From UHGV virus genome UHGV-0143875: a stretch of DNA of 16,260 bases. One strand, 5' to 3'. The notes below the pieces were generated by a model, which ran no database searches, had not been told where the DNA came from, and worked only from the letters and a program-made list of their open reading frames with translations. The DNA is from a virus. Made by a program: the position numbers and the translations under genes. Numbering within the stretch: the stretch's first letter is position 1; each line of letters opens with the position of its first letter. Positions 6,450 to 16,260 of the stretch are shown piece after piece.

Positions 6450-7804
<1,355 letters not shown>

Positions 7805-7998: not shown

Positions 7999-8108
7999 AG
8001 CATTCAAAGCAGAAGGCTTTGAGTAGCGCGAAATGCAGCTGCAAGACAGCAACCGTGGAGATAAGCATCACGGCGCGTTACTCAAAGCTAACTGACAGGA
8101 GAATCCAG

Positions 8109-8435
8109 ATGGATGCACAAACATGCCGCCGCGAACGTCGCGCAGAGAAACAGGCTCAATGGAAAACAGCAAACCCCCTGTTGGTTGGGGTAAGCGCAAA
8201 ACCAGTTAACCGCCCTATTCTCTCGCTGAATCGCAAACCGAAATCACGAGTAGAAAGCGCACTGAATCCGATAGACCTTACAGTGCTGGCTGAATACCAC
8301 GAACAGATTGAAAGCAACCTGCAGCGTATTGAGCGCAAGAATCAGCGCACATGGTACAGCAAGCCACGCAGTGAAATGGGTGTGACTTGTGTTGGTCGCC
8401 AGAAAATGAAATTAGGCAGCAAACCACTTATTTGA
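8109..8435 (+). CDS. N: Antitermination protein N
   Basis: From ATG at 8109: MDAQTCRRERRAEKQAQWKTANPLLVGVSAKPVNRPILSLNRKPKSRVESALNPIDLTVLAEYHEQIESNLQRIERKNQRTWYSKP...; arginine-rich motif at the N-terminus; lambda N by recall. The ORF-track upstream extension (8019-8108) is leader. Confidence 0.9.
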   Translation: MDAQTCRRERRAEKQAQWKTANPLLVGVSAKPVNRPILSLNRKPKSRVESALNPIDLTVLAEYHEQIESNLQRIERKNQRTWYSKPRSEMGVTCVGRQKMKLGSKPLI

Positions 8436-8446
8436 GAGGAATTAAT

Positions 8447-8983
8447 ATGTCATCAATCCGCTTAACTACGAGAATGAAAGAGAAAATCGCTCGTAACGCT
8501 TTAATTAAATCTGGGGTTTTCACTGAGCTTGAAGAAGTAACAAAGTTAAAGAACAAGCTTGCACTTGACGCCAGAGTTGTTGCGTTTGGCGGTAAAAAGA
8601 AAACTGAGGAAGTGGATCAGTTATCATCCAAGTTAATGGCTATAAGCGAAGAACTTGAAAAGCTGGGATGTTCATTTTACTCATGCGATGCCCGTTCAAC
8701 TTCAATTTATCTGACTGTATCTGGCAGAAGGGTTGGCTGGTATTCATATGGGAAAGACGGCAACGGCGAAGATATATTGCTCCCTACTCCGACCAAAGAT
8801 AAATGCATGTTTAGCGCAGAACACGAAATAACAAAAAGGTTTGATGAAATCTGCGCATTGCAACAAAAACTTGAAGCCAAGAAAAAGGATATCGAATCAA
8901 ATGTATGGGCTGCTTTGAACTCAGTCACAACAGTTAAGCGACTTATTGAAGTTTGGCCTGAAAGCAAAGAGTTGCTACCATAA
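8447..8983 (+). CDS. Hypothetical protein, 178 aa, in the N-proximal accessory slot (lambda ral/sieB position)
   Basis: ATG at 8447 preceded by GAGAGGA RBS; MSSIRLTTRMKEKIARNALIKSGVFTELEEVTKLKNKLALDARVVAFGGKKKTEEVDQ...; charged, Lys-rich, no obvious transmembrane segment; lower GC than flanks by eye; no resemblance to Ral or SieB as recalled. Confidence 0.6.
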   Translation: MSSIRLTTRMKEKIARNALIKSGVFTELEEVTKLKNKLALDARVVAFGGKKKTEEVDQLSSKLMAISEELEKLGCSFYSCDARSTSIYLTVSGRRVGWYSYGKDGNGEDILLPTPTKDKCMFSAEHEITKRFDEICALQQKLEAKKKDIESNVWAALNSVTTVKRLIEVWPESKELLP

Positions 8984-9465: not shown

Positions 9466-9569
9466 GTTTTACAGATAACTGGTCAGACGAAGAATTCATT
9501 CGTCAGATAAACAAAATGCTCAATCAGCACAAAGAACAGGAGAAAGATGATGATTCTGACTCTGAATGA
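9462..9569 (+). CDS. Possible small acidic protein (35 aa), ATGA-coupled to cIII
   Basis: MSFTDNWSDEEFIRQINKMLNQHKEQEKDDDSDSE; start overlaps the cIII stop; too short for the ORF track; coding status uncertain. Confidence 0.3.
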   Translation: MSFTDNWSDEEFIRQINKMLNQHKEQEKDDDSDSE

Positions 9570-9858
9570 TAAGCGTGAAATATCGCAAATTATCGCAACT
9601 TTTACTGATGAAGATTACGAACGAATCAACAGTGAAGTTGATCGCCTCTGCAAACGTTGCGACCCAATAAGCGAAATGCTTCGCTCATATAAACCAGATG
9701 AACACACTAAAGATGCTATCGACTGGCTGGAAGATGATGACTGTGACTATCAGGAAAAAGCCGCTGAATGGTTCTGGGATGCAATAACAGAAAGAGTTAA
9801 GGCTGAATATGCCTTCGCAATATTCAAACGCAGACAAATTTATGGAGAAGCAGCATGA
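9547..9858 (+). CDS. Hypothetical acidic protein, 103 aa, immediately upstream of and coupled to the RecT gene
   Basis: RBS AGGAG 5 nt before ATG; MMILTLNDKREISQIIATFTDEDYERINSEVDRLCKRCDPISEMLRSYKPDEH...; Asp/Glu-rich; stop overlaps the RecT start (ATGA). In the position lambda uses for kil/gam. Confidence 0.6.
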   Translation: MMILTLNDKREISQIIATFTDEDYERINSEVDRLCKRCDPISEMLRSYKPDEHTKDAIDWLEDDDCDYQEKAAEWFWDAITERVKAEYAFAIFKRRQIYGEAA

Positions 9859-10757
9859 GCAATATCGTTGAATTCGTTAAACATCAGGAGCAGTTATTCT
9901 GCGGGGCATTGACTGAACAGACGGTGACATGGGCTAAGGAAAGCCAGTTTGCAATTCAGTATTTCCAGAAAAATGATTACCTGGCTAAAACGGCACTGGC
10001 AAATCCAACCAGCGCACAGAACGCCATCATCAATGTTGCGGCGATCGGCATCACCTTAAACCCGGCTAGCAAACTGGCTTATCTAGTTCCGCGCGACGGC
10101 ATGGTTTGCCTTGATATAAGTTACATGGGATTACTTCACCTTGCACAGTCGACAGGATCAATTAAGTGGGGACAATGCAAACTGGTGTACTCAAACGACA
10201 CCTATGAATCGAATGGCCTTGATTCAGCACCCACTCACAAATACAACGCATTTGGTGAGCGAGGCTCTATTGTTGGTGGTTATTGCACGGTTAAAACAGC
10301 AGATGGTGACTACCTGACTGAAGAAATGAGTCTGACAGAAATTAAAGCCGTGGAAGCAACGAGCAAGGCAAAGAATGGACCGTGGATGACATTCTGGGAA
10401 GAGATGGCGCGTAAAACCATAGTTAAACGCGCCAGCAAATACTGGCCTAAAGCCCAGCGACTGGATAATGCCATTCACCTGCTTAACGAAGATGAAAGTA
10501 TGCATCAGGAACCAGTTATGCCGCATAAATCAGAGGAAGATATCCGCGAAGATGAACGGAAACGCCAGCAGGAAATAACGGATAAAGCACAACTTCTTTG
10601 TGATGAAATGGCTCAGGCTGAAAACATGGATGATTTGAAGAGATATTTTGCAGAAGCATATCGCCTGACATCTGGAATGAAATTGCAGCAGAACGTACAA
10701 GCCATTTACATAGAATGCAAAGCGAAACTGGAGGTTGCCAGTGAGCAAACTGTATGA
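9855..10757 (+). CDS. recT: RecT-family single-strand annealing recombinase
   Basis: 300 aa; contains the ...NGPWMTFWEEMARKTIVKRASKYWP... block characteristic of the RecT family (compare Rac RecT GPWVTHWEEMAKKT by recall); occupies the lambda bet position. Confidence 0.8.
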   Translation: MSNIVEFVKHQEQLFCGALTEQTVTWAKESQFAIQYFQKNDYLAKTALANPTSAQNAIINVAAIGITLNPASKLAYLVPRDGMVCLDISYMGLLHLAQSTGSIKWGQCKLVYSNDTYESNGLDSAPTHKYNAFGERGSIVGGYCTVKTADGDYLTEEMSLTEIKAVEATSKAKNGPWMTFWEEMARKTIVKRASKYWPKAQRLDNAIHLLNEDESMHQEPVMPHKSEEDIREDERKRQQEITDKAQLLCDEMAQAENMDDLKRYFAEAYRLTSGMKLQQNVQAIYIECKAKLEVASEQTV

Positions 10758-11223
10758 AATAGCCAATGAATACGCAAAGTTGATGGATTCGGATTTAGAG
10801 CCAGAGATGATTGCTGACACAATAGAAGGCATGGAAGGAGAATTTACCGATAAAATAGAGCAACTTCTTGCCATTATTAAAAATGAATCTGGTTATGCTG
10901 AACGCCTCAAGGACGAGGCAAAGTCACTGAATGAACGAGCAGCAGTAATTCAAAATAAGATTGATAGCATTATGGCATATATAGCGTCATCGCTTGAAAT
11001 GGTTGGCAAGAAAAAGATTCGAGCAGGTATTCACCAGGTAACAATCCGCAAACCGTCAGAAACTGTAGAAATCATCGACTCAAGCGCCCTTCCTCAAGAA
11101 TACGTTGAGTTTGAAACGACAATTAAAGCCGACAAGTTGGCAATAAAACACCAACTAAAAGCAGGAATAAATATCCCCGGCGCTCAACTCAAAGTTGGGA
11201 AACCTTCACTTCTTATCAAATAA
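10741..11223 (+). CDS. Hypothetical protein (~160 aa) downstream partner of RecT, probable GTG start
   Basis: GGAGG RBS 7 nt upstream of GTG at 10741; overlaps the RecT 3' end; predicted helical and charged: SKLYEIANEYAKLMDSDLEPEMIADTIEGMEGEFTDKIEQLLAIIKNESGYAERLKDEAKSLNERAAV.... Function unknown. Confidence 0.55.
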   Translation: MSKLYEIANEYAKLMDSDLEPEMIADTIEGMEGEFTDKIEQLLAIIKNESGYAERLKDEAKSLNERAAVIQNKIDSIMAYIASSLEMVGKKKIRAGIHQVTIRKPSETVEIIDSSALPQEYVEFETTIKADKLAIKHQLKAGINIPGAQLKVGKPSLLIK

Positions 11224-11234
11224 CGGTATCGCCT

Positions 11235-11549
11235 ATGAAAAAGACTCCATGGGAGAAATGGGAAGTCAATTTCTTGCGCGAAGTAGTGGCGACAATGCCA
11301 GTTGAAGTTATCGCTGAAAAACTGGAAAGGACTGAAAAAGCAGTAATGGCGAAAGCAACAAGGATTGGCGCTGACATTGTTAGCCGACTTCGTGGAAGAC
11401 GATGGACAAGAGCCGAAGTATCACTTTTCGGTAAGTTCTCCGCAGAAGAAATAGCAATTGCAACCTGCCGCTTAATTTATTCGGTAAGAGCTATGCGATA
11501 CAAGCTAAAAAAACTCGATGAAAAAAGAGCAGGCATACAAATAAATTAA
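11235..11549 (+). CDS. Hypothetical small basic protein, 104 aa, with two W/E/F-containing repeats (possible DNA-binding)
   Basis: MKKTPWEKWEVNFLREVVATMPVEVIAEKLERTEKAV...RRWTRAEVSLFGKFSAEEIAIATCR...; internal repeat noted by eye; fold unverified. Confidence 0.5.
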   Translation: MKKTPWEKWEVNFLREVVATMPVEVIAEKLERTEKAVMAKATRIGADIVSRLRGRRWTRAEVSLFGKFSAEEIAIATCRLIYSVRAMRYKLKKLDEKRAGIQIN

Positions 11550-11565
11550 CATGGAGTAATTAACA

Positions 11566-11847
11566 ATGAAGCTAAACATCGACCTCGGTAAATACGTTAT
11601 TACTGGAACAAAACACGACCTGATTCTTAATGAAAGAGGAATTATCAAAGAAGGTGAGAATGCAGGGAAAGAAACACTAAGCCGTATCGGTTATTACAGC
11701 AAGTTTGAGCATCTGGTCAAAGAGTTATGCAACCGTGAAATCCTGTTATCTCAGGCGCAGACGCTACAGGATATTCAGCAGCATATCGAAACTTTAGGTA
11801 TGTCACTTAGCATGGCTATTGACCAGTTCGTGGAGAGTAAATCATGA
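11566..11847 (+). CDS. Hypothetical protein, 93 aa
   Basis: ORF track; same strand, AT-rich, tightly spaced after the previous gene. Confidence 0.5.
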
Positions 11848-11978
11848 GAGGACTTGCATACAATCCCGGCATTCTTCCAGCAGAAATGATTATTCGCCAA
11901 CGCGTAAAGCCAATGCCATCGAGAGAGGAATTGCTTAAGAGAAATTCTTTTCCATCAGTGAATCAAACAAATATCTGA
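11844..11978 (+). CDS. Possible small protein (44 aa), ATGA-coupled to the preceding gene
   Basis: [44 protein letters not shown]; start overlaps the upstream stop; below the ORF-track size cutoff. Confidence 0.3.
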
Positions 11979-12006
11979 ATACGATGTGGCGCAAAGGAGG
12001 CAACCA

Positions 12007-12567
12007 GTGAGTGTAACGGTTGAAAAGATTGATGTGTTGTCATTCGTTATAACCGGTGCAGAGAGACTAGATCCGGTTCGAGTGATGATTGAAAACTACG
12101 AACCTGGAAAGGGAAGAATCACCATCACCTGCTACGGAAAAGCGTGGACTGCGGCTTGGTTTGCTATGGGCGGTGATGATGTGCAGACGTTCATTAAGCG
12201 AGTCAGCAACGATTATCTAATCGACAATTTCGACCCTCAACTGCTAAGCACGGTCGACGATGACAACGATGCAAATCTGCTTTTCGTGAAGTCAGAAATC
12301 ATAAAGTTACGAAGAGAGAGAGAAATAGACGTCGTACTGGCTCGCGAAATGTGGGACGAGGCGGAAAACGCCGATGACGTAAAAGAAAGCTGCTGCTGTT
12401 TCGGCGTCGGTAACAAACTACTGAATCTCTTTGGTGATGATCCGTGGTATGCCAACTGGCCAACGATACCAAACCCGAAATACCAGTATCTGGAACGCGT
12501 ACTTAATGCAGTGAGAGACGGTCTTAAGCAAATAGATGCAGGAGAGCAAAGCGATGAAAAACCGTAA
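12007..12567 (+). CDS. Hypothetical protein (~186 aa), probable GTG start
   Basis: AAGGAGG RBS at 11994-12000, GTG at 12007; ...VTVEKIDVLSFVITGAERLDPVRVMIENYEPGKGRITITCYGKAWTAAWFAMGGDD...; acidic central region; first gene of a tightly coupled five-gene block. Confidence 0.55.
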   Translation: MSVTVEKIDVLSFVITGAERLDPVRVMIENYEPGKGRITITCYGKAWTAAWFAMGGDDVQTFIKRVSNDYLIDNFDPQLLSTVDDDNDANLLFVKSEIIKLRREREIDVVLAREMWDEAENADDVKESCCCFGVGNKLLNLFGDDPWYANWPTIPNPKYQYLERVLNAVRDGLKQIDAGEQSDEKP

Positions 12568-12730
12568 GGCAAAACGACTTTTTTTACAGCGACCTGTGCG
12601 TGTGGTGGAGCTGGTTATTAGCAACCATAAGATAGCGGTACTCCATCCATTTGGTCAGGTGGCTTTTGCCGCAAAGCGTAAGCCTACTGCGTCACAGAAC
12701 AGGCGGAAGAAAGGGTACGCTGTAAGATGA
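12554..12730 (+). CDS. Small basic protein (58 aa), paralog 1 of a tandem pair
   Basis: ATG at 12554 (internal Met of ORF 12536..12730): MKNRKAKRLFLQRPVRVVELVISNHKIAVLHPFGQVAFAAKRKPTASQNRRKKGYAVR; Lys/Arg-rich. Confidence 0.5.
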   Translation: MKNRKAKRLFLQRPVRVVELVISNHKIAVLHPFGQVAFAAKRKPTASQNRRKKGYAVR

Positions 12731-12918
12731 AAAACCGTAAAGCAAAGATGCTTATTTCCCGTGTATACAGACGTTGCTATCCCAGCCAATGGTTGAGGGT
12801 TAGCAATCGCCGTGTGGTGTTGTTTTCATTTTCTGGAATTGCCAGAGAGGGAGTCAAAGATAAGCGTAGCGCGGCGCAAAACCGCTGGAAAAACCACTTG
12901 TGCACTAAAGGAGCGTGA
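12727..12918 (+). CDS. Small basic protein (63 aa), paralog 2 of a tandem pair
   Basis: MKNRKAKMLISRVYRRCYPSQWLRVSNRRVVLFSFSGIAREGVKDKRSAAQNRWKNHLCTKGA; ATGA-coupled to paralog 1; shares the MKNRKAK N-terminus and an S/A-QNR-R/W-K C-terminal block. Confidence 0.5.
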   Translation: MKNRKAKMLISRVYRRCYPSQWLRVSNRRVVLFSFSGIAREGVKDKRSAAQNRWKNHLCTKGA

Positions 12919-14993: not shown

Positions 14994-15212
14994 ATGTACT
15001 TGACACTTCAGGAGTGGAACGCACGCCAGCGACGCCCAAGAAGCCTTGAAACAGTTCGTCGATGGGTACGCGAGTGCAGGATATTCCCTCCTCCGGTTAA
15101 GGATGGAAGAGAGTATCTGTTCCACGAATCAGCGGTAAAGGTTGACTTAAATCGACCAGTAACAGGTAGCCTTTTGAAGAGGATCAGAAATGGGAAGAAG
15201 GCGAAGTCATGA
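14994..15212 (+). CDS. xis: Excisionase Xis
   Basis: 72 aa MYLTLQEWNARQRRPRSLETVRRWVRECRIFPPPVKDGREYLFHESAVKVDLNRPVTGSLLKRIRNGKKAKS; lambda Xis by recall; 3' end overlaps int. Confidence 0.95.
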   Translation: MYLTLQEWNARQRRPRSLETVRRWVRECRIFPPPVKDGREYLFHESAVKVDLNRPVTGSLLKRIRNGKKAKS

Positions 15213-16260
15213 GCGCCGGGATTTACCCCCTAATCTTTATATAAGAAACAATGGATATTACTGCTACAGGGACCCAAGGACGGGTAAAGAGTTTGGATTA
15301 GGCCGAGACAGGAGGATAGCAATCACTGAAGCTATACAGGCCAACATTGAGTTATTTTCAGGACACAAACACAAGCCTCTGACAGCGAGAATCAACAGTG
15401 ATAATTCTGTTACGTTACATTCATGGCTTGATCGCTACGAAAAAATCCTCGCCAACAGAGGAATCAAGCAGAAGACACTCATAAATTACATGAGCAAAAT
15501 TAAAGCAATAAGGAGGAGTCTGCCTGATGCTCCACTTGAAGACATCACCACAAAAGAAATTGCAGCAATGCTCAATGGATACATAGACGAGGGCAAGGCG
15601 GCGTCAGCCAAGTTAATCAGATCAACACTGAGCGATGCATTCCGAGAGGCAATAGCTGAAGGCCATATAACAACAAACCCGGTCGCTGCCACTCGCGCAG
15701 CAAAATCAGAGGTAAGGAGATCAAGACTTACGGCTGACGAATACCTGAAAATTTATCAAGCAGCAGAATCATCACCATGTTGGCTCAGACTTGCAATGGA
15801 ACTGGCTGTTGTTACCGGGCAGCGAGTTGGTGATTTATGCGAAATGAAGTGGTCTGATATCGTAGATGGATATCTTTATGTCGAGCAAAGCAAAACAGGC
15901 GTAAAAATTGCCATCCCTACAACATTGCATGTTGATGCTCTCGGGATATCAATGAAGGAAACACTTGGTAAATGCAAAGAGATTCTTGGCGGAGAAACCA
16001 TAATTGCATCTACTCGTCGTGAACCGCTTTCATCCGGCACAGTATCAAGGTATTTTATGCGCGCACGAAAAGCATCAGGTCTTTCCTTCGAAGGGGATCC
16101 GCCTACCTTTCACGAGTTGCGCAGTTTGTCTGCAAGACTCTATGAGAAGCAGATAAGCGATAAGTTTGCTCAACATCTTCTCGGGCATAAGTCGGACACC
16201 ATGGCATCACAATATCGTGATGACAGAGGCAGGGAGTGGGACAAAATTGAAATCAAATAA
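15190..16260 (+). CDS. int: Tyrosine integrase Int (lambda type); stop codon is the last triplet of the window
   Basis: 356 aa MGRRRSHERRDLPPNLYIRNNGYYCYRDPRTGKEFGLGRDRRIAITEAIQANIELFSGHKHKPLTARINSDNSVTLHSWLDRYEK...HELRSLSARLYEKQISDKFAQHLLGHKSDTMASQYRDDRGREWDKIEIK; C-terminal R...H-x-x-R...Y catalytic signature; lambda Int by recall. Confidence 0.95.
   Translation: MGRRRSHERRDLPPNLYIRNNGYYCYRDPRTGKEFGLGRDRRIAITEAIQANIELFSGHKHKPLTARINSDNSVTLHSWLDRYEKILANRGIKQKTLINYMSKIKAIRRSLPDAPLEDITTKEIAAMLNGYIDEGKAASAKLIRSTLSDAFREAIAEGHITTNPVAATRAAKSEVRRSRLTADEYLKIYQAAESSPCWLRLAMELAVVTGQRVGDLCEMKWSDIVDGYLYVEQSKTGVKIAIPTTLHVDALGISMKETLGKCKEILGGETIIASTRREPLSSGTVSRYFMRARKASGLSFEGDPPTFHELRSLSARLYEKQISDKFAQHLLGHKSDTMASQYRDDRGREWDKIEIK

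Follow-up and report, generated by a model that had tools for sequence, protein, structure and literature searches.

The three small plus-strand genes at positions 11235 to 11978 of the viral genome UHGV-0143875, analyzed here as one stretch of 16,260 nucleotides (the window), are genes of the early-left (PL) operon of an Escherichia coli lambda-like (lambdoid) prophage. They are real but ordinary, and all of them fall into already catalogued families. We consider it probable that they are three separate, non-essential early genes at the tail of a recombination (Rec) module, which are cotranscribed from PL and translationally linked and which do not make up one functional unit. The original prediction had reported open reading frames (ORFs) of 104, 93, and 44 amino acids (aa), all of which are present together with the peptides quoted from them, and had found nothing in them that was recognizable. 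This last statement did not hold: ORF93 is a member of Pfam family DUF5405, ORF44 belongs to Pfam family DUF2737, and ORF104 matches phrog_323 and phrog_11492.

The genes of the window run in the order cI-type repressor, N, Nmad5, RecT, Gp157, ORF104, ORF93, ORF44, DUF551, Xis, and Int, which places the trio directly 3′ of RecT and Gp157 (Table 1). Between positions 9500 and 11991, the window shares ~92% identity with phages HK140, mEpX1, and Gally. The module of HK140 is the same as that of the window, and HK140 has been classed as SAP-4, that paper's RecT-type annealing protein, plus MuGam (PMC12315714). Gp157 is presumed to provide the anti-RecBCD function of the RecT-Gp157 module. The similarity to HK140-type sequence ends at a mosaic junction at ~11991, and the gene downstream of the trio varies among E. 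coli genomes (DUF551, DUF7446, DUF7739, or Ea22). On the other side of the module, orf103 precedes RecT in nearly all related loci; a homologue of orf103 was also seen 5′ of a different (DUF3799) module in locus L186. A consensus scan for sigma-70-like signals, which weak promoters could escape, gave no plus-strand promoter or terminator candidate between 10843 and 12200. The trio therefore lies inside the N-antiterminated PL transcript, and this transcript is repressed in the lysogen.

Table 1. Features of the trio and its surroundings, in window coordinates
Feature	Position	Strand	Evidence or remark
orf103 (103 aa, phrog_3486)	9547..9858	+	Conserved small gene 5′ of the recombination module; context
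RecT-family single-strand annealing protein	9855..10757	+	Pfam RecT 1.3e-32; phrog_148; recombination module core
Siphovirus Gp157 / "Mu Gam-like end protection" protein	10735..11223	+	Pfam Sipho_Gp157 2.7e-36; phrog_253
ORF104, basic, 104 aa, two tandem helix-turn-helix (HTH) units, Abc1 class	11235..11549	+	phrog_11492 (1.2e-21), phrog_323 (1.1e-19)
HTH unit 1 of ORF104, residues ~5-46, W-x-x-W-E ... IAEKLERTEKAV	11247..11372	+	hhalign versus Abc1 C-terminal HTH
HTH unit 2 of ORF104, residues ~55-98, R-W-T-x-x-E ... IAIATCRLIYSVRAMR	11397..11528	+	hhalign; predicted helices
GGAG ribosome-binding site, 9 nt 5′ of ORF93 start codon	11553..11556	+	Read from sequence
ORF93, 93 aa, DUF5405 (P2/186 Orf83, Sf6 gp24)	11566..11847	+	Pfam 27.5 bits (cutoff 21.6); phrog_154 2.8e-32
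GGAG Shine-Dalgarno motif 5′ of ORF44	11832-11835		Read from sequence
ORF44, 44 aa, truncated DUF2737 (P22 orf56, HK97 gp38, HK620 HkaI)	11844..11978	+	Pfam 87 bits (cutoff 25)
Ancestral DUF2737 gene extent	11844..12010	+	With the A restored, 55 aa; TGA overlaps GTG start of next gene
A-run with one A lost (AATCAAAACAAATAT in relatives, AATCAAACAAATAT here)	11965..11967	+	DNA alignment with HK140, Louie, Gally, and P22
AAGGAGG ribosome-binding site and probable GTG start (12007) of 186-aa gene (phrog_3451)	11994..12009	+	

The 104-aa protein is basic, as predicted, with a pI of 10.2 and 23 lysines and arginines versus 13 aspartates and glutamates. The internal two-repeat pattern that had been noticed in it is also real, but it is seen mainly through relatives. 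By hhalign, unit 1 matched the C-terminal HTH of P22 Abc1 (88%, E 3.1e-6), and unit 2 matched the third unit of 153-aa relatives (96%, E 4e-9) as well as the Abc1 HTH (56%, E 1.1e-4), whereas the direct comparison of unit 1 with unit 2 was weak (E 0.019). The further guess that these are tandem DNA-binding repeats of a Myb- or HTH-like kind was upheld at the level of sequence profiles by the phrog_323 match (E 1e-19) and the Abc1 HTH matches. The ORF104 profile also matched the NarL HTH weakly, in unit 1 (E 0.013). The two units resemble Myb/SANT, Sigma70 region 4, and LuxR-type HTH domains in having an N-terminal W-x-x-E helix that is followed by a helix-turn-helix, and their tandem arrangement is like that of Myb R2R3. 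They differ from these domains in that ORF104 gave no match to Pfam models of these families at E ≤ 1, including Myb (PF00249), except for a spurious HTH_12 fragment; none of the Pfam HTH models reached its threshold on ORF104. P22 Abc1 itself gave sub-threshold matches to Sigma70_r4 and to Myb (PF00249; 17 bits, below the cutoff of 24.4).

Structure prediction had been proposed as a check for HTH or Myb-like repeats, and its outcome was mixed. AlphaFold predicted a helical ORF104 with a three-helix unit at residues 59 to 98 (helices at 59-66, 70-77, and 81-98), but confidence was low (pLDDT 61), and a Foldseek search with this low-confidence model returned no significant match, the top weak matches all being HTH domains at an E of ~1 each. 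PDB sequence searches with the single proteins gave no matches, and a search of BFVD gave uncharacterized phage proteins only.

P22 Abc1 (94 aa, named "anti-RecBCD protein 1") is like ORF104 in several respects. Both proteins are small and basic (Abc1 has a pI of 10.3), both belong to phrog_323 (E 1.3e-23 for Abc1), both have an HTH unit with the signature W-[ST]-x-x-E ... R-[ST]-x-x-[SA]-V, and the genes of both lie in the PL operon, immediately 3′ of the part of the Rec module that encodes the annealing protein. On the phrog_323 profile of 319 positions, their alignments are shifted relative to each other (145-269 for ORF104, 93-190 for Abc1), which is expected for repeat units. Abc1 differs in carrying the HTH unit at its C terminus only, where ORF104 has two copies, and the N-terminal half of Abc1 matched neither ORF104 unit. 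The partner module of ORF104 also differs, consisting of RecT and a MuGam-like protein without Abc2, and neither the window nor any of the ORF104-anchored loci had an Abc2 homologue. P22-type Abc1 was located after Erf, after a Rad52-type annealing protein, and, in locus L188, after a DUF3799 module without Abc2. Since P22-type Abc1 lacks Abc2 in L188, the Abc2 partnership may not define the Abc1 class. Because BLASTP of ORF104 against P22 Abc1 produced no alignment, whole-alignment hhalign reached only 48% probability (E 1.9e-4), and the structural model was of low confidence with a null fold search, DNA binding by ORF104 is something that we still infer from sequence profiles.

The genomic position of ORF104 was constant. 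It directly followed RecT-Gp157 in 80 of 80 related viral loci, although this sample, like the other 80-locus samples described below, consists mostly of close relatives (≥95% identity), so that such counts are not independent observations. Relatives at 53 to 58% identity are also found at the 3′ end of Rec modules, either after Gp157 or after a Gam-?-YqaJ module. In P22, a link between Abc1 and recombination is known from genetics, and Abc1 helps recombination while being dispensable for it (PMC12315714). Abc1 has an HTH and triggers P4-dependent cell death, a toxicity put down to possible interference with P4 transcription (bioRxiv 10.1101/2023.04.06.535777), and it sensitizes wild E. coli to phages (bioRxiv 10.1101/2023.04.06.535777; PMC12373910). 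In our reading, ORF104 is an Abc1-class protein whose gene invariably closes the RecT-Gp157 (MuGam-like) module, and by analogy with P22 Abc1 it may assist phage recombination or the takeover of the host without being required for either. During lytic growth, it would bind through its HTH units to DNA or possibly to a host factor.

ORF93 is predicted by AlphaFold to form a four-stranded beta-meander followed by a helical hairpin (pLDDT 88). It is 97% identical to Sf6 gp24, and by tblastn it is 33.7% identical to P2 orf83 over 95% of the query (E 1e-9) and 37% identical to 186 Orf83 (E 3e-8); these homologues share its size and its early-operon location. Pfam DUF5405 was also matched by 27 of 42 distant relatives, and 466 representatives of the family were counted at E ≤ 1e-3 in 1.84 billion proteins. 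The gene is separable from its neighbors, being missing from 44 of the 80 ORF104 loci and present or absent between otherwise identical flanks. When ORF93 was used as the anchor, its upstream neighbor was Abc2 in 63 of 80 loci and ORF104 in 16, and DUF2737 followed it in all 80 of these close loci. A profile scan of genome contigs with the closer alignment produced only 7 loci. In 14 more divergent loci, which represent five module types, the ORF93 homologue always lay ≤0.9 kb downstream of a Rec module, and DUF5405 was just downstream of the recombination module in every lambdoid locus examined. P2-like phages differ from the window and from other lambdoid phages in this regard, with DUF5405 preceding the replication nickase gene A, away from any Rec module. 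In a T4-like phage, DUF5405 comes after gp46/47.

ORF93 is an optional cassette, and its place in lambdoid phages is immediately 3′ of the Rec module, whichever type of module that is. Its product may be a small protein-binding accessory factor tied to DNA-end or recombination metabolism. BLASTP of ORF93 against Abc2 gave no alignment.

The smallest ORF had been described as a coupled 44-aa gene, and its coupling and its coding potential both stood up. It overlaps the end of ORF93 in an ATGA (ATG at 11844, TGA at 11845 to 11847), and it has a strong coding signal, with the 34 nucleotide differences from P22 orf56 distributed 11, 2, and 21 over the three codon positions and 78% identity to the P22 protein over its first 41 residues. 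However, 44 aa is not the native length, since this is a frameshifted copy of a gene of 54 to 56 aa. Homologues of DUF2737 are 54 to 55 aa long in 145 of 154 cases, and only the window copy has 44 aa. A 1-nucleotide deletion in an A-run shifts the frame and truncates the protein, which covers positions 1 to 41 of the 53-position Pfam profile. ORF44 would then be the 5′ four-fifths of a DUF2737 gene for a small basic peptide. Like P22 orf56, HK97 gp38, and HK620 HkaI, it lies at the far end of the Rec/abc region, and unlike them, it is without the conserved NKYLN-x-M/L-W/L-R tail. It is better annotated as a frameshifted DUF2737 gene.

Co-occurrence of the homologues, another proposed check, revealed no obligate pairing. 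Among 5426 E. coli genomes, ORF104 was found in 299, ORF93 in 342, and DUF2737 in 1265, and the contiguous block was found in only 142. These results are consistent with three separate early genes, which may act in recombination or in the takeover of the host. Their location next to Rec modules could instead mirror a recombination-prone mosaic boundary and no common function, and it is possible, if rather unlikely, that the trio consists of general counter-defense or host-takeover accessory genes at a mosaic-exchange hot spot and is unrelated to recombination. Mosaic junctions do fall exactly here, where HK140 homology ends and the downstream gene varies, ORF93 comes and goes between otherwise identical flanks, and P22 Abc1 behaved in screens as a broad phage-sensitizing accessory gene (bioRxiv 10.1101/2023.04.06.535777; PMC12373910). 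This explanation does not account well for the gene order Rec module, Abc1-class HTH, Abc2, DUF5405, and DUF2737, which is kept across five Rec-module types and at least eight enterobacterial genera, nor for the place of DUF5405 after gp46/47 in a T4-like phage, nor for the tie between Abc1 and recombination in P22 genetics (PMC12315714).

Within our preferred reading of three separate genes at the Rec-module tail, the conserved order of Rec module, Abc1-class HTH, (Abc2), DUF5405, and DUF2737 across several unrelated Rec-module types provides a modest lead. A survey of lambdoid Rec modules from 2025 left Abc1-class genes, DUF5405, and DUF2737 out of its tally of module genes. It is unlikely, but conceivable, that the Abc1-class tandem-HTH gene and DUF5405, perhaps with DUF2737, constitute an unrecognized conserved "tail" of Rec modules that acts in recombination or in the control of host nucleases. 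Such a tail could, for example, provide nuclease-less RecT/MuGam modules, that of the window among them, with the nuclease-recruiting or nuclease-taming step that they are missing. If the conserved order is functional, it would offer new components for phage recombination systems, which serve in recombineering and themselves interact with RecBCD-centered immunity.

We think it improbable that ORF104 is a transcription regulator of phage genes, or of satellite or prophage genes, that works independently of the Rec module. The name of phrog_323 ("transcriptional regulator, D5-like"), the Sigma70_r4 or LuxR type of the repeat units, and the attribution of P4-dependent Abc1 toxicity to possible interference with P4 transcription all point in that direction, but the PHROG name has no tested function behind it and ORF104 matched no Pfam HTH model at threshold. 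Furthermore, no repeated operator-like sequences, direct or inverted, occurred between 11000 and 13000 except at the starts of two paralogous downstream genes, and strict linkage to a Rec module is unexpected for a general phage regulator.

It is very improbable that ORF93 is a replication-initiation accessory factor, as PHROGs and RefSeq annotation have it, which could help a nickase in the manner of a relaxosome accessory protein. This idea draws on the name of phrog_154 ("replication initiation protein"), on the overlap of the P2 homologue orf83 with the start of nickase gene A, and on a weak match of the family profile to the relaxosome accessory factor PcfF. The PcfF match, which lies entirely within the helical hairpin, falls short of significance (E 0.0074 overall, domain E 0.11), and we rejected it. 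In addition, the record of phage 186 lists Orf83 as "unknown function; not essential," and lambdoid carriers use O/P-type replication from another operon, without an HUH nickase.

The original prediction made ORF104 the DNA-binding regulator or antitoxin of a toxin-antitoxin or lysogeny-modulating module, with ORF93 and ORF44 as the effectors. In its favor is the compact layout, in which small coupled ORFs come after an HTH protein, but it is so improbable that it can be dropped. The genes assort independently (ORF93 absent from 44 of 80 ORF104 loci and ORF104 from 63 of 80 ORF93 loci), the plus-strand consensus scan, which weak promoters could escape, gave no promoter of their own, and a place inside the cI-repressed PL operon speaks against expression in the lysogen. 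In addition, ORF44 is a truncated version of a longer gene, and no toxin, antitoxin, or defense family in Pfam, PADLOC, or NCBIfam matched the trio.

The region is thus one of routine lambdoid early-left accessory genes, already listed as DUFs or hypothetical proteins in public annotation, and our results change little in this picture. Literature searches on DUF2737, DUF5405, and orf83 found no functional study, and the supplements of the accessory-gene screen gave Pfam descriptions of the families only, with the three protein fragments not found in the text searched. The labels "Anti-RecBCD protein 1," "transcriptional regulator, D5-like," and "replication initiation protein" are based on position or remote similarity and not on tested function. 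The trio had also been said to have a lower GC content than the backbone, and it is indeed below the window as a whole (41.1% versus 46.0%, with 4.8% of 744-nucleotide segments equally low), but this is not specific to the trio, since the nearby Gp157 (40.1%) and orf103 (40.7%) genes are equally low.

We found that the three small genes behind the recombination (Rec) module of UHGV-0143875, named ORF104, ORF93, and ORF44 for their lengths in amino acids, are not a module. The original prediction likened their layout to a regulator with effectors, of the toxin-antitoxin or lysogeny-modulating kind, with nothing recognizable among them. All three instead belong to catalogued families: phrog_323 (the class of P22 Abc1, an "anti-RecBCD" protein), Pfam DUF5405, and Pfam DUF2737. 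They are already present in HK140, mEpX1, Sf6, and hundreds of E. coli genomes, mostly as hypothetical proteins. ORF93 was missing from 44 of 80 ORF104 loci (e.g., Gally and mEpX1), and ORF104 was missing from most ORF93 loci. In 5,426 complete E. coli genomes, we detected ORF104 DNA in 299, ORF93 in 342, and DUF2737, about four times commoner than either, in 1,265; the contiguous block occurred in 142, showing that the partners are not kept together. Toxin, antitoxin, and defense-system models in Pfam, PADLOC, and NCBIfam gave no matches to the trio.

The window covers a lambdoid prophage's immunity and early-left region, and its 9500-11991 segment is ~92% identical to HK140, mEpX1, Gally, Louie, and Kapi1. 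The ORF positions, lengths, and peptides were as predicted. The trio is followed on the + strand by small accessory genes, a DUF551 protein gene, an excisionase gene, and then the integrase gene, and the O and P replication genes are on the opposite strand. GGAG lies 9 nt upstream of the ORF93 ATG, and ORF44, which has a GGAG of its own, overlaps the ORF93 stop with its start codon (ATGA). We found no promoter-like or terminator-like site on the + strand from 10843 to 12200 and therefore place the trio in the PL transcript. The trio does have a lower GC content than the window (41.1% versus 46.0%), but Gp157, a Sipho_Gp157/MuGam-like gene (40.1%), and orf103, a 103-aa gene (40.7%), are as GC poor, so low GC is no mark of the trio.

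Features of the window around the three genes
Feature	Position	Strand	Remarks
cI-type repressor	6771-7403	+	
N antiterminator	8019-8435	+	
Nmad5 (nucleotide modification associated domain 5) protein	8387-8983	+	Overlaps end of N gene; upstream of Rec module
orf103	9547-9858	+	phrog_3486
RecT	9855-10757	+	
Gp157	10735-11223	+	
ORF104	11235-11549	+	
ORF93	11566-11847	+	
ORF44	11844-11978	+	
Next gene, 186 aa	12007-12567	+	phrog_3451; probable GTG start; AAGGAGG at 11994-12000
Tandem paralogous small basic genes	12554-12730, 12727-12918		Both phrog_1380; start MKNRKAK
Lambda-type integrase	15190-16260	+	

No Pfam family matched ORF104 at threshold. The protein matched phrog_11492 (1.2e-21) and phrog_323, "transcriptional regulator, D5-like" (1.1e-19), to which P22 Abc1 also belongs (1.3e-23); the C-terminal half of Abc1 matched Sigma70_r4_2 above threshold and Myb below it. 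BLASTP gave no alignment between ORF104 and Abc1, and whole-profile hhalign gave a probability of just 48%. When hhalign was run by repeat unit, the C-terminal HTH of Abc1 was matched by unit 1 (88%, E = 3e-6) and by unit 2 (56%, E = 1e-4); for unit 2 against the additional third unit found in 153-aa relatives, the probability was 96% (E = 4e-9). These matches bear out the two repeats predicted for this protein, which is indeed basic (pI 10.2, nearly that of Abc1, 10.3). Each unit has the consensus W-[ST]-x-x-E, helix, IA-x-x-(L/T)-x-R-[ST]-x-x-[SA]-V-[RK]. Judging from the alignments, ORF104 consists of two tandem copies of the HTH unit seen at the Abc1 C terminus, a small addition of the present analysis. 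A weak profile match to the NarL HTH was also seen (E = 0.013). Structure prediction, proposed as a check for HTH or Myb-like repeats, gave an all-helical AlphaFold model in which residues 59 to 98 form a clear three-helix unit, but confidence was low (pLDDT 61) and a fold search with this model returned nothing informative. The family range is narrow (Escherichia, Salmonella, and Citrobacter).

The order (orf103) RecT, Gp157, ORF104 was found in 80/80 ORF104-anchored viral contigs. Relatives at 53 to 58% identity were again the last Rec-module gene, after Gp157 or a lambda-type Gam-?-YqaJ exonuclease module, and in P22, Abc1 correspondingly comes after erf. True Abc1 homologues are found behind Erf (in P22), behind a Rad52-type annealing protein, or behind a DUF3799 module without Abc2. 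We observed P22-type Abc1 with Abc2 in a Salmonella locus (L182, 2876-3160) and without it in a Pluralibacter MAG, after a DUF3799-x197 module (L188, 4696-5004); thus, Abc1 has no obligate tie to Abc2, despite its name.

ORF93 passed the DUF5405 threshold, matched phrog_154, and shares 97% identity with Sf6 gp24 and ~34% with Orf83 of P2 and of 186, the latter recorded as "unknown function; not essential." We found no experimental basis for the family's common label, "replication initiation protein." A profile search retrieved 466 family members from 1.84 billion representative proteins (E ≤ 1e-3); nearly all have 85 to 105 aa. The AlphaFold model was good (pLDDT 88), a four-stranded beta-meander followed by a helical hairpin, a fold found in BFVD among uncharacterized phage proteins (hosts Salmonella, Morganella, Providencia, Bacillus, Lactobacillus, and Cellulophaga). 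PcfF, a relaxosome factor, gave a weak profile match that was not significant.

Directly upstream of ORF93 we found Abc2 in 63 of 80 anchored contigs and ORF104 in just 16; DUF2737 was downstream in all 80. Fourteen more divergent ORF93 loci (Klebsiella, Enterobacter, Salmonella, Pseudocitrobacter, Cedecea, Pluralibacter, Buttiauxella, Citrobacter, and a bat-fly virome) always lay ≤0.9 kb downstream of a Rec module, most but not all with DUF2737 following. The modules were of five types: RecT-Gp157; RecT or Gam with YqaJ; Erf or Rad52-type with SSB and Abc2; Rad52-type with Abc1 and Abc2; and DUF3799-x197. A T4-like Morganella phage has the homologue after the gp47/gp46 recombination nuclease, whereas P2-like phages have it upstream of nickase gene A. 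Abc1-class and DUF5405 genes recur as a tail behind Rec modules that are otherwise unrelated, again a small addition. For HK140, a lambdoid Rec-module survey published in 2025 gives an annealing protein and MuGam only, leaving the trio genes uncounted (PMC12315714).

ORF44 belongs to DUF2737 (87 bits), with the match limited to positions 1 to 41 of the 53 in the profile. Its coding signal is clear: 34 nucleotide differences from P22 orf56 fall 11/2/21 by codon position, with 14 synonymous and 9 replacement codons, mostly conservative. DUF2737 was 54 to 55 aa long in 145 of 154 genes of the fetched loci and 44 aa in the window copy only. Alignment with HK140, Louie, Gally, and P22 showed the window to be one A short in the run at 11965-11967; restoring it gives a 55-aa product whose TGA overlaps the GTG at 12007. 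By this comparison the 44-aa ORF is a frameshifted DUF2737 allele, also a small addition, and the frameshift may reflect either a true mutation or an error in sequencing. This GTG, and not 11986, is the probable start of the next gene.

Homology to HK140-type phages ends at ~11991, inside the C-terminal DUF2737 codons, which double as the ribosome-binding site of the next gene. The two alternative DUF2737 tails (...WRSGKK and ...WRKGGNQ) each occur with different downstream genes, and a 32-nt direct repeat (81% identical) marks the starts of both phrog_1380 genes. ORF104 of the window has three private substitutions, D12N, A18V, and S80L (0/99 full-length homologues), and S80 is at the conserved R-S-x-x-S-V-R start of the predicted unit 2 recognition helix. 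These substitutions and the frameshift hint at erosion of a prophage copy or at sequence errors. One ENA metagenome protein (P0108, 161 aa), from a locus without ORF93, is an ORF104 homologue fused by read-through to DUF2737, probably through a stop-codon mutation or a gene-calling artifact.

P22 genetics showed that Abc1 helps recombination but is not essential, its molecular function being unknown (cited in PMC12315714). In an accessory-gene screen, Abc1, which has an HTH, caused P4-prophage-dependent cell death and made several wild E. coli strains phage sensitive, with no clear binding partner (bioRxiv 10.1101/2023.04.06.535777, PMC12373910). Beyond the identities, architecture, order, and separability observed here, we infer from homology and fixed position that ORF104 most likely plays a comparable part alongside the RecT/MuGam-type module, where it would bind nucleic acids during lytic growth as a dispensable helper. 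For ORF93 and DUF2737, position behind many kinds of Rec module suggests a possible role tied to host nucleases, recombination, or DNA ends. The main rival explanation is that the Rec-module border is simply a favored mosaic-exchange site that gathers unrelated counter-defense genes.

At the other end of the module, orf103 is a conserved ~102-aa acidic gene directly before Rec modules of differing types, RecT in the window and a DUF3799 exonuclease module in an Enterobacter prophage (L186, 3108-3416; 52% identity), and it may be another unrecognized Rec-module companion.
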